This document shows, one piece after another, positions 1,041-26,347 of a stretch of 30,640 nt of DNA (position 1 is the stretch's first letter; every line of letters begins with the position of its first letter). Below the pieces are notes generated by a model. The model was not told the origin of the DNA and did no database searches. It saw only the letters and a program-made list of their open reading frames with translations. Position numbers and translations under genes: made by a program. The stretch is from an uncultured Chitinophagaceae bacterium (lineage in GTDB: Bacteria; Bacteroidota; Bacteroidia; Chitinophagales; Chitinophagaceae), in the NCBI GenBank assembly GCA_903841915.1, contig CAIMKO010000182.1, positions 1-30,640 on the forward strand, given 5' to 3'.

Positions 1041-3116
1041 ATGAAATTCATGCCAAGCTTTGCTGTTGCATTTTTGATGCTGATCATTTTTCAGGCAAAT
1101 GCAAGTTCTACTATTACTGTAAATTCTCCCAATCAGATCGTACAGTTGAAACTGGCAACAGAACCCGATGGTTCTGTCTGGTACAGTGTTTCACGAAAAG
1201 ATAAAGCTGTGATACTTCCCTCTACTTTCAGCTTTAAACTAAGTAAACCACAGACTGTATTAAATCAATTCAACATCATAGCAATTGATTCATCAGTTGT
1301 AAATGATACATGGCAACCTGTTTGGGGTGAATTGAAAAACATTCATAACAATTACAAACAACTGTCTTTGACCTTGACCGATAAAAACAATTCAGGTATT
1401 ATCATTAAGCTGGTATTCCGTGTTTTTGACGATGGCGCTGCATTCCGTTATGAATTTCCCGAACAAAAACATTTGAAGCATTTTATCATTGAAGAGGAAG
1501 CAACACAATTCAAATTAACAGGCGATCATAAAACTTTTTGGATCCCCGGCGACTATGATAGCAATGAGTTTCTGTACAATACCACAAAACTGAGCGAAGT
1601 AGATGCATACAAAGCAGAAAAAGAAGAAACAGCAATCGGTGTTACCTCTCCATTTAGCGCCAATGGGGTACAAACGCCATTGATGATGAAAACAACGGAT
1701 GGTTTGTATATCAATATCCATGAAGCTGCATTGCTGAATTATTCCGGAATGCAAATATTGATCGATAAGAAAAATCTCACCTTAACTTCTCAACTCGTTC
1801 CGGATGCTTATAACAATAAAGCTTATTTGATCACTCCTGCGGTTACTCCATGGAGAACGATCATCGTGAGTGACAAAGCAACGGATATCCTTGCTTCAAA
1901 AATGATCCTGAATTTAAATGAGCCTTCAAAAATTAAAGATGTTTCTTTCATCAAACCACAAAAATTTGTAGGTGTTTGGTGGGAGATGTTTAACGGTAAA
2001 TCCGCATGGGACAGTGCTACGCATCATCATGGTGCAACAACTGCTAACGTAAAAAAATATATTGACTTCGCCTCCAAACACGGCATTGATGGGGTACTCG
2101 TGGAAGGATGGAACAGAGGTTGGGAAGACTGGTACGGTCAATGGAAAGAAAATGTTTTTGATTTCATCACACCTTACAGCGATTTTAATATTGATGAATT
2201 GACTGCCTATGCAAAAGCAAAAAATGTTCGCATTGTTGCGCACCATGAAACATCGGGATCTGCAACAAACTATGAACGTTATATGGATACCGCCTATCGT
2301 TTCATGATCAATCATAATCAGAATACGGTTAAGACAGGTTATGTTGGAAAGATCATTCCGCGTGGCGAACATCATGATGGTCAGTGGATGGTGAACCATT
2401 ATGTGCGAGTGGCCGAAAAAACAGCTTCATATAAAATAATGCTGGATGCACATGAACCTGTAAGACCAACAGGATTATACAGAACCTATCCCAACTGGAT
2501 GGCTTGCGAAGCAGGACGTGGTACGGAATTCAACGGATTCAGCCATGGTAATGCACCCGAACATGAGACCATCATGCCTTTTACAAGATGGATGGGCGGA
2601 CCGATGGATTATACACCGGGCATATTTAAAATGCACCTGACACAATTTGACCCGAATAAAAAAGAAGGCGTGCATACAACACTCACCAAACAATTAGCAT
2701 TCTATGTGGTTATTTTCAGTCCGATCCAAATGGCTGCCGATATGCCCGAAAATTATGAAGCACATCTGGATGCTTTTAAATTTATTGAAGATGTGGCTGT
2801 TGATTGGGATGATACAAAAATACTGGAAGCAGAGCCGGGCGATTATGTAACGATTGCACGTAAAGCAAAAAATACTGACAATTGGTTTATAGGTGGCATA
2901 ACAGATGAAAATGCAAGAACATCAACGGTTGATCTTAGTTTCCTGGATGCCAATAAAAAGTATGAAGCCACTATTTATCGGGATGCGGAAGATGGACATT
3001 ACGACAGCAATCCGGAAGTGTATGTAATTGAAAAGAAAACGGTTGACAGCAAAACGATCTTAAAATTAAAAGAAGCAGCAGGCGGTGGCTATGCCATTAG
3101 TTTGAAGAAGTTGTAA
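1041..3116 (+). CDS. Glycoside hydrolase family 97 alpha-glucosidase (SusB-like, inverting subgroup), secreted
   Basis: Signal peptide. GH97 motifs LVEGWN, AHHET, DAHEP, CEAGRGTEF, GGPMDYTPG and SPIQMAADMPENY. The glutamate pattern matches SusB-type inverting enzymes. Confidence 0.93.
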   Translation: MKFMPSFAVAFLMLIIFQANASSTITVNSPNQIVQLKLATEPDGSVWYSVSRKDKAVILPSTFSFKLSKPQTVLNQFNIIAIDSSVVNDTWQPVWGELKNIHNNYKQLSLTLTDKNNSGIIIKLVFRVFDDGAAFRYEFPEQKHLKHFIIEEEATQFKLTGDHKTFWIPGDYDSNEFLYNTTKLSEVDAYKAEKEETAIGVTSPFSANGVQTPLMMKTTDGLYINIHEAALLNYSGMQILIDKKNLTLTSQLVPDAYNNKAYLITPAVTPWRTIIVSDKATDILASKMILNLNEPSKIKDVSFIKPQKFVGVWWEMFNGKSAWDSATHHHGATTANVKKYIDFASKHGIDGVLVEGWNRGWEDWYGQWKENVFDFITPYSDFNIDELTAYAKAKNVRIVAHHETSGSATNYERYMDTAYRFMINHNQNTVKTGYVGKIIPRGEHHDGQWMVNHYVRVAEKTASYKIMLDAHEPVRPTGLYRTYPNWMACEAGRGTEFNGFSHGNAPEHETIMPFTRWMGGPMDYTPGIFKMHLTQFDPNKKEGVHTTLTKQLAFYVVIFSPIQMAADMPENYEAHLDAFKFIEDVAVDWDDTKILEAEPGDYVTIARKAKNTDNWFIGGITDENARTSTVDLSFLDANKKYEATIYRDAEDGHYDSNPEVYVIEKKTVDSKTILKLKEAAGGGYAISLKKL

Positions 3117-3124
3117 TGAATAGA

Positions 3125-3160
3125 ACACAGATGACACAGATATAACTGATCATCGCAGAT
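3125..3160 (+). repeat. Short 9-bp-period ACACAGAT-type degenerate repeat
   Basis: ACACAGAT at 3125-3132 and 3134-3141, then degenerate AACTGAT (3144-3150) and GCAGAT (3155-3160). Confidence 0.55.
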
Positions 3161-3165
3161 TTTTT

Positions 3166-3195
3166 CTAAGCCCCGTCATTAATGGCGGGGCTTAG
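3166..3195 (+). terminator. Intrinsic terminator after GH97, between convergent genes
   Basis: CTAAGCCCCGTCATT/AATGGCGGGGCTTAG inverted repeat with one G-U pair, followed by TTATTT. Confidence 0.8.
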
Positions 3196-3237
3196 TTATT
3201 TATAATGCAACAGACTATAAAAAATCAGGGTCTTTTG

Positions 3238-3735
3238 TTACTGAACCTTTTTTAAGGTTGACCAAATTTCCATGCCCCCATTTTGCGGTGTTTGTATAGT
3301 GATAAGAAGTAGTTTGTCTTTGAGTTTGTATATTTTTTGTGCTTCATTTTTTTTATGACGATCTGTGGTTGTAATAGTAGAGCTCTCTTCATCAACTATG
3401 TAAGAGATTTTATAATCTGAAGCAGGCCCCTGCCCATAATAAATCTCTCCTGTTCCATCCTCATTGAACTGATAAAACATCTGTCTCATTATTTCAAAAG
3501 CTGGCCTCATGCTTTTCGTTGCAGAATCTATTGATATGTTTGCTTTCGAAAGATTCGCTTTTCCGGAATCGCCCATTATGATAGAATCTTTATCAAGATC
3601 GTAAGTAACAATATTTTTAAATTCTTCTACCGCTAAAACCCATTTACCAATAATATCAGATTTTTTGATTTTGGTTTGAGCATTGATCTGAAAGGATAAC
3701 AAAATCAACGAAAGAAAGAAAGCGATTTTTTTCAT
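3238..3735 (-). CDS. Hypothetical secreted protein, possibly lipocalin-like beta-barrel
   Basis: Start moved to ATG 3735 (MKKIAFFLSLILLSFQINAQ is a clean signal peptide). The IIGKW and YQFNEDGTG patterns recall lipocalin-like domains, which is inference only. Confidence 0.7.
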   Translation of the reverse strand: MKKIAFFLSLILLSFQINAQTKIKKSDIIGKWVLAVEEFKNIVTYDLDKDSIIMGDSGKANLSKANISIDSATKSMRPAFEIMRQMFYQFNEDGTGEIYYGQGPASDYKISYIVDEESSTITTTDRHKKNEAQKIYKLKDKLLLITIQTPQNGGMEIWSTLKKVQ

Positions 3736-3867
3736 GATTGTCATTTGAAAGAACAATTTCAAAATATTTTATTCAACAGCTTGCAACAAAAAAGACCCTG
3801 AAAAAAATCAGAGTCTTTTATTTATCTCATTTGCAAATTTGCACATCAAATAATTTGCACATTCGCA

Positions 3868-4842
3868 TTACCATCCCAAGATCCACGCAAACATTAACGG
3901 CGCAACGATCGTTGCATCACTTTCTACAATGAATTTTGGTGTATGGATATCTAATTTACCCCAGGTAATTTTTTCGTTTGGAACAGCCCCACTATAAGAA
4001 CCGTAAGAGGTTGTGCTGTCACTAATTTGGCAGAAATAACTCCAGAAAGGAACGTCATGCCATTCCAGATCCTGATACATCATCGGCACCACACAAATTG
4101 GGAAATCGCCTGCAATACCGCCACCGATCTGGAAGAATCCAACACCTTTGCCGCCACTGTTGGCACGATACCATTCGGTTAAATAGATCATGTATTCAAT
4201 ACCGCTTTTTACGGTACTTGCTTTTAATTCGCCCTTGATCACATAACTCGCAAAAATATTTCCGGTAGTACTGTCTTCCCATCCCGGAACGATGATCGGA
4301 ATATTTTTTTCGGCAGCCGCTAATATCCAGCTGTCTTTCGGATCAATTTCATAATACTGTTCCAGTTCTTTGCTCAGCACCACTTTGTATAAAAACTCAT
4401 GTGGCAAATATCTTTCACCTTTTGCTTCGGCATCTTTCCACTGTTTCACCAAATGTTTTTGCAGGCGGCGGAACGCTTCTTCCTCGGGAATACAGGTATC
4501 GGTAACACGATTGTAATGATGCTCTAAGAGGTCCCATTCGTCCTGTGGGGTCAGATCACGATAATGAGGGACCCTTTTATAATGAGAATGAGCAACAAGG
4601 TTCATCACATCTTCTTCCAGGTTGGCACCGGTACAGCTGATAATATCCACTTTCCCCTGACGGATCATTTCAGCAAAAGAGATCCCTAATTCGGCGGTGC
4701 TCATGGCACCGGCCAGTGTGACCATCATTTTGCCGCCTTCCAGCAAATGTGTTTCATAGCCTTTTGCCGCATCCATCAGGGCTGCAGCGTTGAAATGGCG
4801 GTAATGGTGTTCGATAAACTGAGAAACGGGTCCTTTACTCAT
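3868..4842 (-). CDS. Deoxyhypusine synthase-like protein (probable homospermidine synthase)
   Basis: DHS motifs TLAGAMST, ISCTGANLEED, PGWEDSTTG, IGGGIAGDF, SYGSYSGAVPNEKITWGK (catalytic Lys of the WGK motif retained) and SDATIVAPL. Confidence 0.92.
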   Translation of the reverse strand: MSKGPVSQFIEHHYRHFNAAALMDAAKGYETHLLEGGKMMVTLAGAMSTAELGISFAEMIRQGKVDIISCTGANLEEDVMNLVAHSHYKRVPHYRDLTPQDEWDLLEHHYNRVTDTCIPEEEAFRRLQKHLVKQWKDAEAKGERYLPHEFLYKVVLSKELEQYYEIDPKDSWILAAAEKNIPIIVPGWEDSTTGNIFASYVIKGELKASTVKSGIEYMIYLTEWYRANSGGKGVGFFQIGGGIAGDFPICVVPMMYQDLEWHDVPFWSYFCQISDSTTSYGSYSGAVPNEKITWGKLDIHTPKFIVESDATIVAPLMFAWILGW

Positions 4843-4860
4843 AACTTGCTTTTAGTGGCG

Positions 4861-4868
4861 CAAAAGTA
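4861..4868 (-). promoter_or_regulatory. Bacteroidota -7 promoter box for the DHS-like gene
   Basis: TACTTTTG on the minus strand fits TAnnTTTG, followed by CGCC, 18 nt before the ATG. Confidence 0.6.
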
Positions 4869-4950
4869 ATTTTTTTGCGTCGGTTTTACGAGAAATAAAG
4901 AGTTAAGCTTTTATCAGTTGGAAATTATAGTTTTAATTTGCAAACCCGCA

Positions 4951-5880
4951 ATGAAGAAACTCATCAGCATATTGATCCCCGTTTTTAATGAAGAGGGGAA
5001 TGTACCTGCCATTACGGAAGCGATTCGTACAGTTTTTGAAAATATCCATTTCGATTATGAGATCGTTTTTGTGAATGACGGCAGCGCCGATAATAGTTTG
5101 GCCATTATTAAAGAGATTGCAATTACACAAAACAATATCTTCTATATTTCATTTTCAAGAAATTTTGGTAAGGACAATGCATTATTGGCCGGATTTAAAT
5201 ACTGTAAGGGCGATGCGATCATAACGATCGATGCCGACATGCAGCATCCACCCGAAATGATCCCCGGTATGCTGCAATTATGGGAAGAAGGAAATGATGT
5301 GGTGTATACCTATCGTTCCGACAGAAATCAACACGCCAGTAATTTTAATCAGTTCACCTCAAGAATGTTTTATAAAGTGATCAATAATCTTTCTGATGTT
5401 GATCTGGAAGATGGTATTGCCGATTATCGCCTATTGGATAAATCTGTGGTGGGTGTATTTAATAATTTACATGAAGACAGGCCTTTTTTTCGCGGTTTGA
5501 TAAAATGGGTTGGATTTCAGCAAAAAGGCATTCCTTACATGCCCAAACCAAGAGTTACCGGCGAAACTAAATACAGCGCTAAAGCATTGGTCAGATTGGC
5601 ATTGCAGGGGATTACATCTTTCAGTGTAAAACCACTGACCATTGCGATCTATCTGGGACTGACCTTTTCGTTATTATCTACTTTATATATTCCTTATGTA
5701 TTGATCAGTTTGTATAAAGGATATGCTATATCGGGATGGACGTCGATCATCGTTACCATTGCTTTTTTTGGCGGTTTGCAATTAATGATATTGGGAATAC
5801 TGGGAATTTATCTGGGAAAATTATTCATGCAAAGCAAACAGCGGCCACACTTCATCATTAAAGAAACCAATCTTTACTAA
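4951..5880 (+). CDS. GT2 polyprenol-phosphate glycosyltransferase (GtrB/ArnC/CsbB type)
   Basis: SILIPVFNEEGNV, VNDGSADNS, FSRNFGKDNAL, ITIDADMQHPP, DYRLLD, RPFFRGLIKWVGF and two C-terminal TM helices. Start moved to ATG 4951. Confidence 0.92.
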   Translation: MKKLISILIPVFNEEGNVPAITEAIRTVFENIHFDYEIVFVNDGSADNSLAIIKEIAITQNNIFYISFSRNFGKDNALLAGFKYCKGDAIITIDADMQHPPEMIPGMLQLWEEGNDVVYTYRSDRNQHASNFNQFTSRMFYKVINNLSDVDLEDGIADYRLLDKSVVGVFNNLHEDRPFFRGLIKWVGFQQKGIPYMPKPRVTGETKYSAKALVRLALQGITSFSVKPLTIAIYLGLTFSLLSTLYIPYVLISLYKGYAISGWTSIIVTIAFFGGLQLMILGILGIYLGKLFMQSKQRPHFIIKETNLY

Positions 5881-5901
5881 ACTTAGGTGCGTACCATTAA
5901 T

Positions 5902-7110
5902 ATGAGCGAAAACAAAACAAAGAAATGGTTTAGTTCAGGTGCTTTCTTGCACGATAAAACCTTAGCGCTTGTTTTATGGTTTGGTTTAGCTTTCATTGCT
6001 GTGCTGCTTGATTTTCTTCATGGGATGACCAATAACTACATCATCTTTAAATATGTGTACATACATACCCTGCAACACACAAATCTTTATTTGGAATATC
6101 CGCAGCAGTATGTTGATGTAAATTTATATGGTCCAGTTTTCAGTATGGTGATCGCACCATTTACATTATTGCCCGATTGGTTGGGAATTATTTTCTGGGG
6201 AATGTTTAATACGGCTATTTTATATGTAGCGATCCGAAAATTACCCATTGAAGCAAAATGGCAATACGCGATCCTTATTTTAAGTGCACACGAAATGATG
6301 AATGCCGCATCCTGGCTGCAAAGTAACCCCCTGATCGTTGCCTGTATCATTCTTGGATTTGTATTCATTCATGAAGGGAAAAATATCTGGGCATTATTTT
6401 TTATTATGCTGGCCACATTTGTTAAGCTCTATGGCATTGTTGGATTTGCTTTCTTCTTTTTTAGCAAGGATAAATTGAATTTTATTAAATGGGCCTTTAT
6501 TTGGGGTGCCGTATTTTTTGTCTTGCCCATGCTGCTGGCACCACCATCCTTTGTGATGCAATCATATCATGACTGGTATGCTGCACTTACTTTTAAAGCC
6601 GCAAAAAATGTCAGGCTGGATATTCACAATGATTATCAGGATATTTCTGTGATGGGAATGATCAGAAGAATATTCAATTACCCCGAGTTTAAAAATATCT
6701 ATATCACCATTCCTGCAATGCTCATATTCGGATTGCAATATTTGCGTTATAACTATTTTTCTGATCTACGATTCCGACTCTATCTTTTGTGCTCTGTGCT
6801 GATCACAACAGTGATCTTTACTACCAGTGCAGAATCCCCAACTTATATCATTGCATTTCCTGCGGTGTGTATCTGGTATGTATTGCAGCAGCACACTAAA
6901 ATGATCAATGCTGTATTTATTTTTGCGCTTTTACTAACGAGTTTTTCTTATTCAGATATTTTTACGCCGTATGTCCGTGACCATATTATCAGGCCTTATT
7001 CCTTAAAAGCATTGCCTTGTTTTGTGTTGTGGATATTGATCGCCTGGCAGATCTTTTCAAAACAATTTTTGTCTGTTGACCGTACATTAATCTTAGAGAA
7101 AGCAGCATAA
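5902..7110 (+). CDS. GT87/DUF2029 family polytopic membrane glycosyltransferase (GT-C, lipid-linked donor)
   Basis: About 10 hydrophobic segments. NNYIIFK, NLY...YGPVFSMVIAPF, QSNPLI, FVKLYG and AESPTYIIA patterns are typical of Bacteroidota DUF2029/GT87 proteins. Start moved to ATG 5902. Confidence 0.82.
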   Translation: MSENKTKKWFSSGAFLHDKTLALVLWFGLAFIAVLLDFLHGMTNNYIIFKYVYIHTLQHTNLYLEYPQQYVDVNLYGPVFSMVIAPFTLLPDWLGIIFWGMFNTAILYVAIRKLPIEAKWQYAILILSAHEMMNAASWLQSNPLIVACIILGFVFIHEGKNIWALFFIMLATFVKLYGIVGFAFFFFSKDKLNFIKWAFIWGAVFFVLPMLLAPPSFVMQSYHDWYAALTFKAAKNVRLDIHNDYQDISVMGMIRRIFNYPEFKNIYITIPAMLIFGLQYLRYNYFSDLRFRLYLLCSVLITTVIFTTSAESPTYIIAFPAVCIWYVLQQHTKMINAVFIFALLLTSFSYSDIFTPYVRDHIIRPYSLKALPCFVLWILIAWQIFSKQFLSVDRTLILEKAA

Positions 7111-7119
7111 ATTCATTGC

Positions 7120-7911
7120 ATGAAGCAAGCCGAGCGATTTATCATATTGAGTTTTGATGTGGAGGAATTTGACCTTCCTCTGGAATATGGAGAAAATATT
7201 TCTGCAGAGGAACAATTCATGATTGGTAATGCCGGAACTGAAAGCATTGCTACAATACTGGACCAACACGAAATAAACTGCAGCCTTTTTACCACCGCTA
7301 ATTATGCGATGCATTTTCCGCAACAGATAAAAGCATTGGCAAAGCAGCATGAAATCGCTTCGCATACATTTTATCATTCATCGTTTCAAAACGAAGATCT
7401 CTTAGCATCAAAATTAAAGCTCGAAGAAATTTCAGGAACAACGGTATCCGGTTTGCGAATGCCAAGGATGCGGAAAATTGAAATGGAAGAAGTGAAAAAG
7501 GCAGGATATATATACGATTCGTCCATTAACCCAACTTTTTTGCCAGGGAGATATAACAATCTTCATCTGCCCCGAACATTATATAAAGAAGAGGATATTT
7601 TTCGCTTGCCCACGTCGGTCACTCCCCATTTACGCATTCCTTTATTCTGGCTGGCATTTAAGAACCTTCCATACTTTGTTTTTAAACAAATGGCTATTCA
7701 AACTTTGCGGAATGATGGCTGCCTCAGTCTGTATTTCCATCCATGGGAATTTATTGACATTAATCAATATAAAATACCCGGCTACACCAAAAGACTATGC
7801 GGCATCGCTCTTCAGCAAAGAATGCATCAGTTAATTAAAGATCTGAAAAAAGAAGGCCAATTCATTACAGCCCAAACCTATATCAATGAGAAAAGCCCTC
7901 TTATACAATAA
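7120..7911 (+). CDS. Polysaccharide deacetylase family protein (CE4/NodB-like, DUF3473-like), cytoplasmic
   Basis: LSFDVEEFD, SLFTT, HEIASHTFYH, GLRMPR, YDSS and YFHPWEF motifs. No signal peptide. Confidence 0.88.
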   Translation: MKQAERFIILSFDVEEFDLPLEYGENISAEEQFMIGNAGTESIATILDQHEINCSLFTTANYAMHFPQQIKALAKQHEIASHTFYHSSFQNEDLLASKLKLEEISGTTVSGLRMPRMRKIEMEEVKKAGYIYDSSINPTFLPGRYNNLHLPRTLYKEEDIFRLPTSVTPHLRIPLFWLAFKNLPYFVFKQMAIQTLRNDGCLSLYFHPWEFIDINQYKIPGYTKRLCGIALQQRMHQLIKDLKKEGQFITAQTYINEKSPLIQ

Positions 7912-19243: not shown

Positions 19244-21499
19244 TTATTTTAGTGTAAGATCTTTTTCCAAAACATCTTTAGAGCTACTGCCCACAAAGAT
19301 CTTGAAAGCGCCGGCTTCTAATTTTGCATTGCCATCGGCATCATAAAATGAAAGATCTTTTCCTGTTAATGTGAAACTGAGTTCTTTGGTTTCACCGGCT
19401 TTTAAAGATACTTTCCGGAATGCCTTTAATTCTTTCACCGGACGAATGATCGATGCGGTAATATCTCTGATATACAATTGCACTACTTCTTCACCATCCA
19501 TTTTTCCGGTATTGCTCACAGTGATCTTGACAGTGAGCTTATCTGTTTTTGAGATAGTGTTGCTGCTTAACGTAAGATCACTGTATTTGTAAGTGGTATA
19601 GCTTAAACCAAATCCAAACGGATATAAAGGATCGTTTGGAATATCGCGATAACGAGAGAACCAATTGCCTGCATCATCAGTTGGATTAGGTCTGCTTGTG
19701 TTGAAATGATTGTAGTAAACAGGGATTTGTCCAATAGCATAAGGAAAACTTACAACTGTCTTCGCAGAAGGATTATAGGCACCTGTCACAACATCAGCAA
19801 TAGCATTTCCTGTTTCTGTTCCCAATATCCAGCAATAGGCGATAGAAGAAACAAGATCATTTATATTTGTTAGGATCAAAGGTCGTCCTGCTGTAACCAA
19901 TGCAACGATCGGCTTTCCTGTTTTTTGCAATGCTTTTAATAATTGTACTTGTCCTTCAGGAATAACAGGATTTGCCAAAGCTCTGTCTTCCCCTGCCATT
20001 TTTCCGGAAATGCCCACATTCACCAGAACAACATCCGAATTATTGGCTGATTGAACAGCAGCATTAATTAAATTATCGTTGGTGCTTGCATCTGCATTAT
20101 AGCCTTCTGCATAATTGATAGCAGACTCTCCTAATTTGTTTTTCAATCCGTCATAGATCGTTACGGCATTATTGGCTGTTCCGTTACCGATCCAGAAATC
20201 AAACATATCTTCTTTGCTCTTTGCATAATAACCGATCAACGCAACTTTTTTTGTTGCAGCAGTTAGTGGTAAAAGATTATTATTATTTTTTAATAAAACA
20301 ATGGAAGCTTTTGCGGCATTTCTTGCTTCGGCTCTGTTGGCTTCAGTAAATAATGTTTTGCTTTCTCTTTCTTCATCAGAGAATTTGTAAGGATTATCAA
20401 ATAGGCCAAGTTTGAATTTGTAATATAAAATTCTGGCAACGGCATTATCCACTTCTGCAACAGTGATCTTTCCTTCTTTCACAAGTTGTGGTAAATAATC
20501 AATGATCACTTTTGATTCCATGTCCATCATACTTCCTGCCTGAATGGCTTTCAGTGCAGCATCTTTTCTGTCGGCTGCATAACCATGCGGTATTTGTTCG
20601 CCAAATGAAGCCCAATCACTTACTAAGAAACCTTTGAAGCCCCATTTCTTCAATAAAATATCGTGTACCAAGTATTTATTACCGCTTGCAGGAACACCTT
20701 CAAATACATTGAATGAATTCATCACAGTTGCGGCACCGGCTTCAACGGCGGCTTTGTACGGCGGTAAATATTTATTCCATAATTGAACACGGGAAACATC
20801 TACCTGATTGTACTCACGACCTGCTTCCACTGCGCCATACACGGCGAAATGTTTTACGCATGCCATGATATGTTCAACATCATTCAAATTGCCTTGTAAA
20901 CCTTTTACTCTTGCAGCAGACAATAATGAACCGTAATAAGGATCTTCGCCAATGCCTTCCATGATCCTGCCCCAACGAGGGTCGTTGGTGATATCACACA
21001 TGGGTGCAAATGTCCAGTTGATCCCTGCAGAAGCTGCTTCTTTTGCAGCAACAGCTGAATTTTTTTCTGCCTGCTTCAAATCCCAACTGCAGGCCTCTGC
21101 TAATGGGATGGGGAATATCGTTCTGTAACCGTGTATCACATCAAAACCAAAAAGAACGGGAATGCCCAAGCGGGTTTCTTCCACGGCAACTTTTTGAACA
21201 GCTTTGGTTTCTTTTGCGCCCAAGACGTTTAAAAATGAGCCAACTTTACCATCACGCAGTTCTTGCATTTTGGTTTTTTGTCCGGCATCATTTGCAGCAG
21301 GCCCTGTAAATAATCCACCGTTCAATTGGTTTAATTGTCCGGCTTTTTCTTCAATGGTCATACGTTTTAGAAGGTCGCTGACACGCTGCTCTATCGGCGC
21401 TTTTGCATCTTTATAAACGGCTTTTTCTGAGGCTTTTGTTTGTGCGAAACTGCAGGAAATAATAGCCATGCAGCAAAGGAGTGAGATCATTTTTTTCAT
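19244..21499 (-). CDS. bglX: GH3 beta-glucosidase (BglX-like) with C-terminal Fn3-like domain, secreted
   Basis: Signal peptide. RLGIP..FG.DVIHG, DPRWGRI.EG.GEDP, CVKHFA, nucleophile SDW, GED, PLYPFGFGLSYT and Fn3-like EVVQLYIRD. Confidence 0.95.
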   Translation of the reverse strand: MKKMISLLCCMAIISCSFAQTKASEKAVYKDAKAPIEQRVSDLLKRMTIEEKAGQLNQLNGGLFTGPAANDAGQKTKMQELRDGKVGSFLNVLGAKETKAVQKVAVEETRLGIPVLFGFDVIHGYRTIFPIPLAEACSWDLKQAEKNSAVAAKEAASAGINWTFAPMCDITNDPRWGRIMEGIGEDPYYGSLLSAARVKGLQGNLNDVEHIMACVKHFAVYGAVEAGREYNQVDVSRVQLWNKYLPPYKAAVEAGAATVMNSFNVFEGVPASGNKYLVHDILLKKWGFKGFLVSDWASFGEQIPHGYAADRKDAALKAIQAGSMMDMESKVIIDYLPQLVKEGKITVAEVDNAVARILYYKFKLGLFDNPYKFSDEERESKTLFTEANRAEARNAAKASIVLLKNNNNLLPLTAATKKVALIGYYAKSKEDMFDFWIGNGTANNAVTIYDGLKNKLGESAINYAEGYNADASTNDNLINAAVQSANNSDVVLVNVGISGKMAGEDRALANPVIPEGQVQLLKALQKTGKPIVALVTAGRPLILTNINDLVSSIAYCWILGTETGNAIADVVTGAYNPSAKTVVSFPYAIGQIPVYYNHFNTSRPNPTDDAGNWFSRYRDIPNDPLYPFGFGLSYTTYKYSDLTLSSNTISKTDKLTVKITVSNTGKMDGEEVVQLYIRDITASIIRPVKELKAFRKVSLKAGETKELSFTLTGKDLSFYDADGNAKLEAGAFKIFVGSSSKDVLEKDLTLK

Positions 21500-23371: not shown

Positions 23372-23455
23372 AAATAGCAGACATTTATATTTTCATTTAC
23401 AAATAATACAAACGGGAATGCTTTGACAGGTAATAAGTTGAACTTTACACCTGTA

Positions 23456-23740
23456 ATGAAAGGAATAATGTTAGACTTAGAAAACATAGATAAACTCAGC
23501 AAGCAAGACCTAGCAAATGCGATCAATTATCTGATCGAAGAAGATTTTCATGCTTTGATACAGGTTTTATATCGGTTAGATATTAATGAGAAATTACTCA
23601 AGCAAACTTTGCATGATAATAAAGAGGAAGACGCAGGGGTAATGATCGCTGATATGATCATTAAAAGGCAAACCCAAAAAGAGGAGTTTAAAAAACAATT
23701 CAAACAACAGAATGATATTGCTGAGGAAGATAAATGGTAA
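23456..23740 (+). CDS. Conserved-looking hypothetical protein (helical, acidic C-terminus)
   Basis: L..AINYLIEEDFHAL.Q.LYRLDINE..LK and C-terminal EEDKW look like a real protein. Start is uncertain (ATG 23456 or 23468 preferred over TTG 23423). Confidence 0.7.
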   Translation: MKGIMLDLENIDKLSKQDLANAINYLIEEDFHALIQVLYRLDINEKLLKQTLHDNKEEDAGVMIADMIIKRQTQKEEFKKQFKQQNDIAEEDKW

Positions 23741-23741
23741 T

Positions 23742-26261
23742 TTAATTCAGCAGATCATCAATCCGTTTAAATCCATATCCGTCTTTCTTTAAATAATCGA
23801 TCATTTCATTCAGTCGGTTGTATAATTTATCTGTTCTTCTCGGATCTGTTCCAGCATGGATCAATAAAATATACCCATTGAGACCGCTTGGTTTTTTTGA
23901 CAATTGTTTAATATGATCCAACAGCTCCTCACTGCTTTTATATGCCTTACCCATTTCAGGATAGGTATAATCCGCATTGGTTGCAGAGCCGGGGGTAAGA
24001 TTGAATAGTGAAAGACCGATCTCATTGCACCATTTGGCAATATCATCATTCCACCATTCATAAGGCGGTATGAACAATCTCCTTTCAGGATCATATACAT
24101 CCAGTTGTTCCATGGCGAGTTCATTCATATTAAAATCGTGAACAAAAGTTCCCCTGCTGATCAATGTGCTGTCTCTTTTGTTCCAGTCGCAATACAATAG
24201 ATGGTCATTGGAATGAGCGCCTAAATAATAAAAGTTTTCATCTAATACTTTTATGTTGGCAATATTCTTGGGATCGCTATAAAATCTTCCGGTAAAAAAG
24301 AAGGAACCGGAAATATCCTGTTGCTTCAATGTTTTGGCAATAAGAGGTAGTCCTTCACCAAATTCATCCGCAGTAAATACCAATGCGATTTCTTTTTTGC
24401 TGCTGTCGCCTCTGATCATAGCACCATGACTCCAGCTAATATTTTGTTTTGTAGCAACTGACTCCGGCTGAATGATAGGGTTTTTACTTTCTGCTTCTTT
24501 TGCCGCTAATAAATAAATCAAGTTCGCTGTACCATCCATGGTCGGTTCGTTGGTACTGTAATCGCCATAATCATCATGATACACGGCCATATCACTTTGA
24601 AAATCCTTGTATACATCTTCGTGTGTGAGTTTAAGGCCGATCAAACTGTTATAAATAGAACTATACACCGGACCATCTACCAATCCGCCATTGATCGGAT
24701 AATTTTTTAAATGCGTGAAGGCAGAATGCGGATCAACGGGCGTATCTCCCCATTCCGGTAAACCGTATACCATGCATATGCCCCAAGGATTACAGCCAAA
24801 GAGCCAATCGATGTTGGCTTGCTCTAATTCAGCATAACTATCATCTTTTTGATAATGGCGGTACCAATAACATTCTGTTGCAAAAGCAGTAGTTAAATTA
24901 TTACTGCACCAGGTAAATGGAATGCCGCGATAAAATGCATTGTGTTTTGCTTTTTCCCAAACACTGCTTATGCCGTCTTTGTAACTTAAAATTAATTCCG
25001 CTCCGTCATCAGTATTTGCCGAAGCTTTTGCCAGTTCATTTACCCCGATATGGATGAATGGATAATACTGGTAATGCTTAAGCGTATCTCTTCCCAACCA
25101 AGTTTGATGATAAGCACTATCTAAAAAGCTGTAAGCCGCATCCTTATATTTCTTATCCCTTGTTAATTTGTATAATTCTGTAGCAGCTAAACCCATATCA
25201 TCTTCCCAATCTTCTTCTTCATAGATATAAGGTGATACAACAGAAACGGTTTGAGAAACACCTTGTTTTTTATTTGCAAATGCATAAGCAGTAAATGCTT
25301 TGGCCCTTAAAAGATCGGCAAATTCAATATCCAGTTTATTAAATATGGAATAGCCTAATGCAAATGCGCTTGTAAATTTCGCTGCTGTAGAACTGGTGCC
25401 GGTTGTATTATTCATGAACTTGCCACGTTGTTGTGGTTCACCGGTAATTAAATAAACAGGGCGTTCAAACCCTTTACCATAATAATTATCTTCCTTGGGG
25501 ATTCGCATGCCTCTGTGATCACGATCATCTCCCAGTTGATTGAATAACAGATTCTTTTTCGGATGCATTTTTAATAGCCAATCCAGTCCCCATTTTGCTT
25601 CATCCAAAATATCAGCCCTGCCATTCTTTCCATTCAGACCATTGCCTTGTTTTTCATCTTCAAATACTTTTGGAAAGTCTCTGTACGCCATCAGTAAATG
25701 ATAGGTAGCATTGGCAGATGTTGAACTGTACTGCAAGTAATCACTCGCATCATGCCATCCGCCGGTTACATCAATATGAGTGCTGTCTTTAATTCCTGCT
25801 GATGCGCCATACAAGACATAACCATCATGGGTGTGACAACTGTCTTTCAAAAACGGATTAAAGCCACTTCTTTGCTGCCGCATGTATTGTAAACAAAAAT
25901 CTGCTGTTCCGGTATATACATCATCATCAATTGTAATAATGGGTGAAATAGTATTGCCTGCTTTGATATAAAATTTACCTGGCTTAGTAAATGCAGAAAA
26001 ATTCAAACGATAGGTCTGCTTGAAGGGGCCATATGCGCCAAAAGCCTTACTTGCATTATTGGTATAAACAATTTGGTGAGTTGCTGAATCGATCAATTCG
26101 AAAGCAGCGATTGAAATATCTTCTTTGCTACAGTATATAGCTACTTTTATTCCTTTCGTTGTATAGCCTAATTGATTGATTCGGATCCATGACTGAACTG
26201 CTTCATCAGTAGTGAATGAACTTAGGAGCAAAATCATCAATGAAAAAGTGATGTTTTTCAT
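23742..26261 (-). CDS. GH9 glycoside hydrolase (N-terminal Ig-like domain) fused to a C-terminal CE4/NodB-like deacetylase domain
   Basis: Signal peptide from ATG 26261. WIRINQLGY (CelD-N-like), GGWHDASDYLQY, DEAKWGLDWLLKM and DYSTNEPTMDGTA (catalytic acid). Then LVFTAD, GSFFFTG, GAHSNDH, FIPPYEWWN and LLIHAG. Confidence 0.88.
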   Translation of the reverse strand: MKNITFSLMILLLSSFTTDEAVQSWIRINQLGYTTKGIKVAIYCSKEDISIAAFELIDSATHQIVYTNNASKAFGAYGPFKQTYRLNFSAFTKPGKFYIKAGNTISPIITIDDDVYTGTADFCLQYMRQQRSGFNPFLKDSCHTHDGYVLYGASAGIKDSTHIDVTGGWHDASDYLQYSSTSANATYHLLMAYRDFPKVFEDEKQGNGLNGKNGRADILDEAKWGLDWLLKMHPKKNLLFNQLGDDRDHRGMRIPKEDNYYGKGFERPVYLITGEPQQRGKFMNNTTGTSSTAAKFTSAFALGYSIFNKLDIEFADLLRAKAFTAYAFANKKQGVSQTVSVVSPYIYEEEDWEDDMGLAATELYKLTRDKKYKDAAYSFLDSAYHQTWLGRDTLKHYQYYPFIHIGVNELAKASANTDDGAELILSYKDGISSVWEKAKHNAFYRGIPFTWCSNNLTTAFATECYWYRHYQKDDSYAELEQANIDWLFGCNPWGICMVYGLPEWGDTPVDPHSAFTHLKNYPINGGLVDGPVYSSIYNSLIGLKLTHEDVYKDFQSDMAVYHDDYGDYSTNEPTMDGTANLIYLLAAKEAESKNPIIQPESVATKQNISWSHGAMIRGDSSKKEIALVFTADEFGEGLPLIAKTLKQQDISGSFFFTGRFYSDPKNIANIKVLDENFYYLGAHSNDHLLYCDWNKRDSTLISRGTFVHDFNMNELAMEQLDVYDPERRLFIPPYEWWNDDIAKWCNEIGLSLFNLTPGSATNADYTYPEMGKAYKSSEELLDHIKQLSKKPSGLNGYILLIHAGTDPRRTDKLYNRLNEMIDYLKKDGYGFKRIDDLLN

Positions 26262-26347
26262 AACAAACGATTCTCCTTTAAAGGTACTCAGCATTTTACT
26301 CTTGTCCTCCGATTTTTAGTATAATTTCGGCTTAGAAAATTAATATT

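Follow-up and report, generated by a model that had tools for sequence, protein, structure and literature searches.

The window (the whole 30,640-nt stretch of DNA that was analysed) carries on its reverse strand, at 23742-26261, a single unbroken open reading frame whose translation of 839 aa plus stop runs from a signal peptide through a CelD_N Ig-like domain, a GH9 domain and a linker of ~27 aa to a CE4/NodB domain. The GH9 and CE4 domains are intact and score above their Pfam cut-offs, and both the uninterrupted frame and the architecture described in the first-pass annotation stand. The features are as follows.

23742..26261, (-) strand: whole CDS, 839 aa plus stop (850 aa from an alternative start at 26294)
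26196..26261, (-) strand: probable Sec signal peptide, residues 1-22, read from sequence
25953..26195, (-) strand: CelD_N Ig-like domain, residues 23-103 (PF02927, E 8e-21)
24507..25916, (-) strand: GH9 (alpha/alpha)6 catalytic domain, residues 116-585 (PF00759; best PDB match 3x17)
25740..25754, (-) strand: HDASD, residues 170-174, with D171 and D174 as the catalytic Asp pair of DAGD (alignment to 3x17, GGWHDAGDY)
24540..24551, (-) strand: NEPT, residues 571-574, with E572 as presumed catalytic acid (alignment to 3x17, TNEPAID)
24426..24506, (-) strand: linker, residues 586-612, in-frame (low pLDDT at 597-605 in the predicted model)
23745..24425, (-) strand: CE4/NodB-fold deacetylase-like domain, residues 613-839 (PF01522; predicted model pLDDT 83)
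24363..24377, (-) strand: FTADE, residues 629-633, displaced motif 1 (hhalign and HMM alignment, conservation)
24201..24215, (-) strand: HSNDH, residues 683-687, motif 2 with the putative His-His metal ligands (hhalign and conservation)
24057..24071, (-) strand: IPPYE, residues 731-735, motif 3 without Arg, E735 nearly invariant (hhalign and conservation)
23964..23978, (-) strand: NADYT, residues 762-766, with D764 as motif-4 Asp (hhalign; D in 145 of 145)
23856..23867, (-) strand: LLIH, residues 799-802, with H802 as the presumed motif-5 catalytic His (hhalign; H in 130 of 134)

An in-frame ATG at 26294, 5' of the annotated start, gives the longer alternative product (+11 residues). The protein begins MKNITFSLMILLLSSF..., which by inspection of the sequence, with no predictor, is Sec-signal-like and lacks a lipobox Cys; standalone CE4 orthologues and standalone GH9 orthologues have hydrophobic N-termini of their own. 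The fused protein is probably periplasmic. No T9SS tail was found on the 839-aa protein, in agreement with the earlier description. The accompanying remark that no SusC/D genes lie nearby is correct for the window but does not extend to the family, in which some relatives of the gene are located in SusC/D loci. An assembly artefact at the GH9-CE4 junction is very unlikely because independent genomes in the hundreds show the same in-frame junction, among them isolates of Pedobacter, Sphingobacterium, Chitinophaga and Terrimonas.

The GH9 domain covers 444 of 444 positions of the Pfam model Glyco_hydro_9 (PF00759; E 1.9e-74, 252 bits versus a cut-off of 27.7), and D171, D174 and E572 are invariant among 40 homologues. 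HDASD had been singled out as a departure from the DAGD of cellulases; because both catalytic Asp of DAGD are retained and the motif is invariant across the GH9-CE4 family, DASD is best read as a trivial variant that carries no mark of changed chemistry. A predicted GH9 model of moderate quality (mean pLDDT 75, poor loops) returned only GH9 structures among its top 20 Foldseek matches. Nearest by both sequence and fold were the Ig-GH9 endoglucanases 3x17, AaCel9A, BoGH9A (6dht), CelD and J30, with Vibrionaceae exo-glucosaminidases ranking below them at 17-22. When compared with the exo type, the relevant model loops had pLDDT <50, and the Asp pair lies directly before helix 2, as in the endo-type Cel9A.

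That endoglucanases are the closest solved structures speaks for a beta-glucan enzyme, with GH9 as an endo- or processive beta-1,4-glucanase (on cello-oligosaccharides, mixed-linkage glucan or xyloglucan) and CE4 either de-O-acetylating or binding plant or bacterial glucans. Known GH9 exo-glucosaminidases cleave glucosides too (PMC6096475), and CE4 has acetylxylan esterases among its members, with 7fbw and 2c71 appearing in the fold matches of the domain described here. This reading sits less well with a second GH9 clade in the same phylum (27-35% identity, ~555 aa) with no CE4 noted alongside it, and it is weighed further below with the gene neighbourhoods.

The C-terminal domain matches Polysacc_deac_1 (PF01522) over residues 619-751 (E 1.4e-7, 32 bits versus a cut-off of 23.1), and its model matched CE4 structures in Foldseek with probability 1.0 and a TM of 0.71, the closest solved structures being PdaA-type MurNAc deacetylases and BA3943. 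In profile-profile and HMM alignments, the Asp-Asp columns of the canonical motif 1 (TFDD) are occupied by T630 and A631, which confirms the earlier observation that this motif is atypical. We counted conservation over 150 CE4 representatives clustered at 50% identity: G or A occupies position 631 in 137 of 140, and at position 632 we counted H in 76 and D in 45, making D632 (D or H in the subfamily) a likely metal ligand. Motif 2, H(S/T)xxH, is present, with H683, S684 and H687 invariant in the family and the two His kept in 138 of 148 and 136 of 149 representatives, respectively; the motif-4 Asp (D764) and the L-x-H of motif 5 (H802) are also in place. Motif 3 retains PPY, but its Arg column (residue 731) holds I, L, V or M and never R. 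Three further residues, E735 (139 of 148), D709 (143 of 149) and R809 (132 of 134), are strongly conserved, as is R617 across the 150 distant representatives, and E735 is a candidate general base. These metal-site and base assignments rest on alignments and conservation.

By the same evidence, the CE4 domain is rewired, not decayed, and looks catalytically live, although its activity is not assured, since neither the canonical base Asp nor the Arg that pairs with it is present. The missing motif-1 Asp-Asp and motif-3 Arg, variation at position 633 and several other positions across the subfamily, and a best structural match (BA3943) that is a CE4 pseudoenzyme according to its PDB titles could together mean that CE4 is a pseudoenzyme acting as a carbohydrate-binding or regulatory module, beside a GH9 domain active on whatever substrate. 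We regard this as improbable, and the earlier suggestion of a mere binding module as unlikely: a complete rewired polar set (the His-His pair, D/H at 632, D764, H802, E735, D709 and R809) is kept across 150 clusters at 50% identity, such residues are usually lost in pseudoenzymes, and the D-to-H exchange at a single site suggests selection for metal binding. The conserved set is also kept in at least five domain architectures and in standalone secreted proteins. In one subfamily member (P0280), CE4 is joined to an N-terminal domain that looks like a class-A beta-lactamase-type serine hydrolase (Atlas score 0.98), which we record as a lead only; a PDB sequence search with this domain gave no match, and the fold assignment comes from the Atlas look-alike alone.

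The window gene is an ordinary member of a GH9-CE4 family, for which no biochemical study of the fusion was found in a literature search. Its architecture had been presented as if it were rare; at least 588 species genomes carry the fusion, and all 120 best protein matches have the three-domain architecture. Among 401 sampled Bacteroidota genomes, 43 contain a GH9 orthologue (at least 39% identity), 46 a CE4 orthologue and 37 both. In-frame fusions occur in half of the genomes with a CE4 orthologue (23/46), and the GH9 gene adjoins the CE4 gene in 8 of the 17 unfused loci examined. Adjacent separate genes, proposed earlier as something to look for, were found in both orders, with four ordinary pairs (GH9 then CE4 in L096 and L098; CE4 then GH9 in L087 and L095). 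In the other four, L083-L086, a dnaX-like -1 frameshift cassette links the two genes at the position of the linker, and a CC_AAA_AAA_G junction is present in relatives. Three proteins (P0298, P0264 and P0291) are fusions in the reverse order, CE4-Ig-GH9, and at least six genomes hold both genes unlinked. GH9 and CE4 are clearly coupled in evolution. The co-occurrence, the fusions in both orders, the adjacent pairs and the frameshift-linked pairs argue strongly for the proposal that the two domains would act on one substrate.

We infer the class of that substrate from gene neighbourhoods in relatives: of 121 related loci, roughly a dozen have amino-sugar or related informative neighbours. The window itself and most Chitinophagaceae loci carry genes for an FAA hydrolase, a flavin reductase, DUF2400 and a fatty-acid hydroxylase, which are uninformative on function. 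Elsewhere, a ROK-MFS-SIS triad lies beside the gene in six loci (L008, L033, L044, L086, L096 and L103) and NagA is nearby in L043 and L044. MurQ (TIGR00274, 331 bits versus a cut-off of 302) occurs with an SSF symporter in L060, L062, L073, L066 and L105, and ~8 kb away without an SSF match in L116; the MurQ/SSF neighbours belong to Sphingobacterium and Chitinophaga loci and L105. L066 adds AnmK (699 bits versus 616) and a DeoR regulator, L103 has a GH18 chitinase with a T9SS tail as immediate neighbour, and in L123 and L124 a GH9 gene without CE4 precedes genes for a DUF5009/NagX-like protein, for NagA and for the triad. The SIS orthologue was detected in 12 of the 401 genomes; the GH9 orthologue accompanies it in ten of these and the CE4 orthologue in nine, often on separate contigs. 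No SIS orthologue was found in the window's own MAG (84% complete), which encodes GH18, NagA, MurQ and a NagB-type deaminase.

Several candidate identities or markers were set aside. The SIS protein belongs to the UPF0309 family, as does NagS (9eol, E 1e-21), the family's one characterised member, whose substrate is GlcNAc-6P; it was not assigned as NagS, distant homologues being inactive on GlcNAc-6P (PMC12680351). The GH3 protein encoded 2.2 kb from the gene in the window was considered as NagZ and rejected, as it is a BglX-type beta-glucosidase. 'GH18' BLAST labels in L126 reflected shared T9SS tails, not chitinases, and a PIG-L-domain protein next to the L083 pair is confined to that locus; both were dropped as evidence.

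The same neighbourhoods bear on the beta-glucan reading. In its favour, the ROK kinases score best against the glucokinase family, and a BglX-type GH3 gene lies near the GH9-CE4 gene in the window, L019, L042, L102 and L096, in the last directly downstream of the pair. A GH3 gene is nearby in only 5 of the 121 loci, however, and among those neighbours of the 121 that recur or were annotated, neither a CBM nor any other gene for a cellulase or hemicellulase was recognised. Nor would activity on glucans explain why MurQ, AnmK, NagA, NagX-like and GH18 neighbours recur, or why this GH9 clade and a PdaA-like CE4 co-occur so tightly, and we consider this reading unlikely.

Hydrolase-deacetylase pairings are typical of exopolysaccharide systems, with PgaB and PelA as examples, and the protein is exported; it might thus tailor a glycan in the periplasm in a comparable way, deacetylating and trimming either the exopolysaccharide that the cell itself makes or some other glycan of the envelope. 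We judge this very improbable, as no genes for a glycosyltransferase synthase, for export or for a polymerase were recognised among recurring or annotated neighbours in the 121 loci, and the informative neighbours are catabolic (kinase, permease, etherase, SusC/D). The window does contain a GT2/GT87-like/CE4 trio, but this is 16 kb away and not syntenic with the gene elsewhere. Among the substrates first proposed, we do not favour acetylated cellulose, xyloglucan or an exopolysaccharide of the cell's own making, while the N-acetylhexosamine glycans gain from the MurQ, AnmK, NagA, ROK-MFS-SIS, GH18 and NagX-like neighbours in relatives. GH9-CE4 proteins form a widespread Bacteroidota family whose substrates are most likely amino-sugar chains, from bacterial cell wall or chitin fragments, and not cellulose.

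On balance, we lean towards an enzyme of the periplasm that deacetylates and cleaves glycans derived from peptidoglycan or chitin. The protein would be a Sec-exported, probably periplasmic bifunctional enzyme acting on beta-1,4-linked N-acetylhexosamine glycans, likely peptidoglycan glycan fragments (GlcNAc-MurNAc), chitin and chitosan oligosaccharides, or both; the order of its two steps and the role of each residue are as we infer them. The C-terminal NodB-fold domain would first act as a metal-dependent de-N-acetylase with a rewired site, its metal held by D632, H683 and H687, with H802 and D764 as the acid pair and E735 or D709 as the base in place of the lost motif-1 Asp. Once CE4 had laid bare a free 2-amino sugar, the GH9 domain, an inverting enzyme in which D171/D174 would form the base pair and E572 the acid, would hydrolyse the adjoining beta-1,4 bond, and the products would enter amino-sugar catabolism.

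A more specific version of the deacetylate-and-cleave reading, which we offer tentatively, is a so far unrecognised route by which Bacteroidota scavenge peptidoglycan glycan strands. PdaA-like deacetylation, by the rewired domain, of GlcNAc or MurNAc in peptide-free strands might be followed by a GH9 cut at the 2-amino sugar, with the products passing to MurQ, AnmK and NagA and to the ROK-MFS-SIS triad. In some lineages the dnaX-like -1 frameshift might set the ratio of GH9 alone to GH9-CE4. If true, a cell-wall glycan would for the first time be the target of a GH9.

When genomes and metagenomes of soil and freshwater Bacteroidota are surveyed, GH9 genes are routinely tallied as 'cellulases'. 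If this clade, carried by about one in ten sampled Bacteroidota genomes as well as by the species genomes counted above, acts on peptidoglycan or chitin fragments, then such surveys overcount cellulose degradation and overlook a route by which nitrogen and carbon from microbial necromass are recycled. A CE4 subfamily that appears to have kept the metal site and moved its acid-base machinery would also extend what is known of NodB catalysis.

Several known systems share parts of this design. The Ig-GH9 structures 3x17 (a metagenomic endoglucanase; sequence E 2e-28, Foldseek E 2e-24), Alicyclobacillus Cel9A (3ez8/3gzk), Bacteroides ovatus BoGH9A (6dht) and C. thermocellum CelD (1clc) have the same CelD_N and (alpha/alpha)6 domains, Asp pair and Glu. 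Identity to them is only about 20-24%, none has a CE4 domain, and they act on glucans and carry DAGD, whereas the family of the window gene has DASD and amino-sugar neighbours. For the CE4 domain, the best sequence and fold matches are the PdaA-type enzymes (B. subtilis PdaA, 1w17/1ny1; B. anthracis BA0424, 2j13) and the pseudoenzyme BA3943 (7bkf), which share its NodB fold, His-His motif 2, motif-4 Asp and motif-5 His at ~21-22% identity. The domain here differs in having T and A/G in the motif-1 columns with D or H one residue later, a hydrophobic residue for the motif-3 Arg, and E735, D709 and R809 as conserved additions specific to its subfamily. In Tannerella forsythia, MurNAc salvage is encoded by murT-murK-murQ (PMC5790795), and an SSF-type symporter and MurQ etherase are likewise found beside GH9-CE4; in the literature found, GH9-CE4 is not among the described genes of that operon, and MurNAc is released there by other families (NamZ).

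The activity proposed here for GH9 after deacetylation is that of the Vibrionaceae GH9 exo-beta-D-glucosaminidases PBPRA0520 (5dgq/5dgr), VC0615 (6gdt) and VP2484 (3h7l), which also have an N-terminal beta-sandwich and are encoded in amino-sugar (chitobiose) loci. They cleave GlcN-terminated oligosaccharides but not (GlcNAc)2, prefer (GlcN)n over (Glc)n, and have a cleft that is closed beyond subsite -1 by extended alpha1-2 and alpha9-10 loops (PMC6096475). Their proposed in vivo substrate is a PTS-imported phosphorylated disaccharide (PMC6096475), which implies a cytoplasmic site. By contrast, the protein described here has a signal peptide and a deacetylase fusion that they lack, and they are more distant from it than the endoglucanases are (6gdt, E 5e-9, residues 28-240 only). 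The chitin route of Thermococcus employs the deacetylase Dac (CE14) and then the exo-beta-glucosaminidase GlmA (GH35; PMC6566704). Its logic is the one proposed here, in that a terminal GlcNAc is deacetylated before cleavage by an enzyme that requires the free amine. The Thermococcus enzymes, however, are from unrelated families and are separate, cytoplasmic, archaeal proteins.

The GH9-CE4 gene in the window encodes a protein of 839 amino acids in one intact frame, as the first-pass annotation had proposed, and a check of the translation confirmed the motif positions wherever that annotation had given them. Three Pfam domains score above their curated cut-offs; NCBIfam returned only sub-threshold matches, with PdaB and PdaA at the top for CE4. 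A Sec signal peptide lacking a lipobox can be read at the N-terminus, an alternative in-frame ATG upstream at 26294 would add 11 residues, and no T9SS tail was seen in the protein.

23742-26261, minus strand: GH9-CE4 coding sequence, intact, 839 aa
Residues 23-103 of the GH9-CE4 protein: CelD_N
Residues 116-585 of the GH9-CE4 protein: GH9 (252 bits)
Residues 619-751 of the GH9-CE4 protein: Polysacc_deac_1 (32 bits)
23423-23740, plus strand: 105-aa ORF with TTG start, convergent, 1-nt gap to the GH9-CE4 stop
19244-21499, minus strand: periplasmic BglX-type beta-glucosidase of family GH3 (3u48, E 4e-207), 2.2 kb from GH9-CE4
4918-7911, plus strand: three co-oriented genes for a GT2 of the polyprenyl-phosphate glycosyltransferase type, a GT87-like membrane GT-C and a CE4/DUF3473 deacetylase
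3868-4842, minus strand: deoxyhypusine-synthase-family gene (PF01916, E 3e-41), adjoining the GT2 trio

The gene is flanked by a divergent FAA-hydrolase-family gene, a flavin reductase, the convergent 105-aa ORF and DUF2400, an order common to Chitinophagaceae relatives, whereas the neighbors in Pedobacter differ (TetR, an efflux pump and PEP carboxylase). Because neighbors differ by lineage and the window-type synteny is a Chitinophagaceae set, most loci are uninformative on function; the gene in the window is an ordinary in-frame family member whose own neighbors are likewise uninformative. The 105-aa ORF, which is rich in charged residues and had no Pfam match, is kept in 30 of 81 related loci, and the GH3 gene is syntenic with GH9-CE4 in only a few Chitinophagaceae genomes. 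The GT2 trio resembles, we presume, ArnC/ArnT/ArnD or Bordetella LgmABC, which place an amino sugar onto lipid A.

The GH9-CE4 architecture is not rare. The best 120 matches in a collection of 5.8 billion proteins were 60-94% identical across their full length and nearly all carried the three Pfam domains, with a few lacking a CE4 match. With each species represented by a single genome, a scan revealed a relative in at least 588 species, including named isolates of Pedobacter, Sphingobacterium, Chitinophaga, Terrimonas, Puia and Segetibacter. These full-length matches and this breadth of species indicate that the junction is real biology. The window's MAG (634 contigs, 84% completeness) holds a single copy. 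NCBI labels such proteins 'glycoside hydrolase family 9 protein', and a literature search for the fusion found no characterizing paper.

Across 401 evenly drawn Bacteroidota genomes, a CE4 orthologue occurred in 46, a GH9 orthologue (a clearly separated clade; E ≤1e-124, identity ≥39%) in 43 and both in 37. The CE4 domain lay within an open frame of ~820-940 aa, and was thus fused, in 23 of the 46 CE4-positive genomes, and 17 of the remainder were examined for GH9 linkage. The survey suggested by the first-pass annotation, for the two domains as adjacent separate genes, succeeded in four of these 17 loci, with GH9 preceding CE4 in L096 (where CE4 has its own signal peptide) and L098, and the reverse in L087 and L095. 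In another four (L083-L086), a CE4 frame at -1 stays open across the GH9 gene's end and lacks its own start codon. The two genes were far apart or on separate contigs in at least six genomes (G063, G041, G289, G013, G069 and G365), standalone CE4 orthologues, ~255 aa long and each equipped with a signal peptide, were frequent, and three proteins (P0298, P0264 and P0291) had the reversed order CE4-Ig-GH9. Independent fusions in either order, together with genome-wide co-occurrence, provide strong evidence that the GH9 and CE4 activities serve one process.

The CE4 domain model is a confident NodB fold (pLDDT 83, Foldseek probability 1.0), and its best matches are BA3943, PdaA and BA0150, along with peptidoglycan deacetylases. 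We aligned the CE4 family profile using hhalign to canonical CE4 proteins encoded in that genome, and using HMMER to PDB chains, revealing the following motifs.

Motif 1, canonical T-F-D-D: V-F-T-A in those columns, then D632-E633
Motif 2, canonical H-S/T-x-x-H: HSNDH, kept
Motif 3, canonical R-P-P-Y: I-P-P-Y, Arg lost
Motif 4, canonical Asp: D764, kept
Motif 5, canonical L-x-H: H802, kept

Among 150 representatives of the CE4 subfamily at 50% identity, R617, H683, H687, D709, E735, N738, D764, H802 and R809 were nearly invariant, position 632 was His in 76 and Asp in 45, position 731 was hydrophobic throughout and position 633 was variable; position 631 was Gly or Ala in 137 of 140. In the model, the strand ends at A631 and D632 is the first loop residue; in canonical CE4 enzymes, the metal-binding Asp sits on the loop after the strand (PMC10967932). 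The metal would be held by Asp or His 632 with H683 and H687; H802 and D764 may form the acid pair, and E735 or D709, with R809 or R617, could substitute for the lost Asp-Arg base pair. The proposal that the CE4 domain has become a binding module is not favored and seems to us quite improbable, since residue conservation across the 150 representatives argues against decay.

Neighborhoods were informative in ~12 of the 121 related loci surveyed. A ROK kinase, MFS and SIS_2 triad in fixed order adjoins the GH9-CE4 gene or genes in six (L008, L033, L044, L086, L096 and L103).

L086:10639-13557, also L096, L103 and L122-L129: ROK-MFS-SIS_2 triad

In L086, from the window's family, the triad occupies precisely the interval from the GH9 gene to the FAA hydrolase gene, which in the window is the immediate neighbor of GH9-CE4. 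In L103, a single strand carries, in turn, genes for a TonB-type receptor, a PorV-like protein, GH9-CE4, a T9SS-tailed GH18 chitinase (Pfam E 9e-75) and the ROK, MFS and SIS proteins, and L044 has the order SusC, SusD, NagA, GH9-CE4, followed by DeoR and the triad. In L123 and L124, a GH9 gene without CE4 precedes a DUF5009/HGSNAT-like (weakly NagX-like) protein, followed by NagA and the triad in L123 and directly by the triad in L124. Three Sphingobacterium loci, Chitinophaga sp. YR627 (L066) and L105 have GH9-CE4 flanked by a MurQ etherase, which scores above the equivalog cut-off, and an SSF symporter; AnmK and DeoR are additionally present in L066. In L116, MurQ is ~8 kb away and no SSF match was found in the locus. 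The MurNAc transporter MurT of T. forsythia is a sodium-symporter superfamily member whose gene accompanies murK and murQ (PMC5790795). The absence of SusC/D near the gene holds for the window, but L044, the Sphingobacterium loci and L105 (SusD-like genes) and L066 (a SusC-like gene) do have one or both.

Only 12 genomes out of the 401 had the SIS orthologue, and in these the triad is a fixed unit that nearly always accompanies the GH9 clade; ten of them also encoded the GH9 orthologue and nine that of CE4, mostly on a different contig. Its family (UPF0309) contains NagS (match 9eol), a GlcNAc-6P dehydratase (PMC12680351). Distant NagS homologues were inactive on GlcNAc-6P when tested (PMC12680351), so this chemistry is no more than a possibility for the triad protein. 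GH18 genes, NagA, MurQ and an NagB-type deaminase are present in the window's genome, and a search of this 84%-complete MAG did not recover the SIS orthologue.

On balance, we lean toward amino-sugar beta-1,4 glycans as the substrate, taking peptidoglycan and chitin/chitosan fragments as one explanation because both are such glycans. Peptidoglycan fragments, to which we give slightly more weight, would account for the GlcNAc-type neighbors, the MurNAc-type neighbors and the relatedness of the CE4 domain to PdaA; chitin/chitosan oligosaccharides would account for the GlcNAc-type neighbors and GH18. Exopolysaccharide tailoring, which lacks synteny support, is very unlikely.

The CE4 subfamily also has other partners: a BamB-like beta-propeller (P0247, P0248, P0259 and P0265; 741-763 aa) and, by eye, N-terminal HEAT-repeat-like domains (P0278 and others) and an esterase-like domain (P0251). 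The partner in P0280 had class-A beta-lactamase-type serine hydrolases as Atlas look-alikes (score 0.98), a lead only to a possible domain of that type. A secreted protein of ~620 aa, combining a calcineurin-like metallophosphoesterase with a PQQ/BamB-like propeller, adjoins CE4 or GH9-CE4 in six loci.

L060:8137-10008, L089:6005-7834 (GH9 absent), L095, L105, L062 and L073: phosphoesterase-propeller protein

In one genome of the window's family, a standalone CE4 orthologue is directly followed by a 602-aa six-hairpin glycosidase that takes the place of GH9 and has weak alpha-L-rhamnosidase-like matches (L082:7926-10579); the GH9 orthologue of that genome lies 1.7 Mb from the CE4 orthologue. 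Another contig of the window's genome (C149; L131/L135) carries, at ~1680-5970, a single open frame of ~1144 aa with GH18 followed by a canonical CE4 (HTFTH, RAPY), a second glycosidase-deacetylase fusion of this organism.

In the GH9 domain, D171, D174 and E572 fall opposite the catalytic residues of 3x17 and are invariant in the family alignment, and DASD is a trivial variant of DAGD. Both sequence and fold place the Ig-GH9 endoglucanases 3x17, AaCel9A, BoGH9A, CelD and J30 closest among solved structures. This endoglucanase-like character, the BglX-type GH3 in the window and a GH3 directly downstream of the GH9/CE4 pair in L096 favor a glucan enzyme, a reading that we consider unlikely beside that of an amino-sugar substrate. 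Vibrionaceae exo-glucosaminidases of GH9 ranked 17-22 among the matches, behind the Ig-GH9 endoglucanases. Exo-acting GH9s are defined by long cleft-closing loops, and no structural basis has been reported for the GlcN preference of the Vibrionaceae enzymes (PMC6096475); the full-length model (pLDDT 75 overall) falls below 50 in several loops and is too poor there to judge exo-type loops.

Finally, the GH9 frame in L083-L086 terminates as ...PKK* at CC_AAA_AAA_G (L083:7990-8010). AAGGAGG (GGGAGG in L083) is located ~9-14 nt upstream, and downstream, after ~0-7 nt (5-6 nt in L085 and L086), begins a hairpin that is ~1.1 to 2.8 SD more stable than shuffled sequences. Such a cassette would yield GH9 by itself as well as the GH9-CE4 fusion. 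The frameshift junction is a feature of relatives only, as the gene in the window is a plain in-frame fusion. In its slippery site, upstream AAGGAGG/GGGAGG and downstream hairpin, the L083-L086 junction corresponds in layout to the -1 frameshift site of dnaX.
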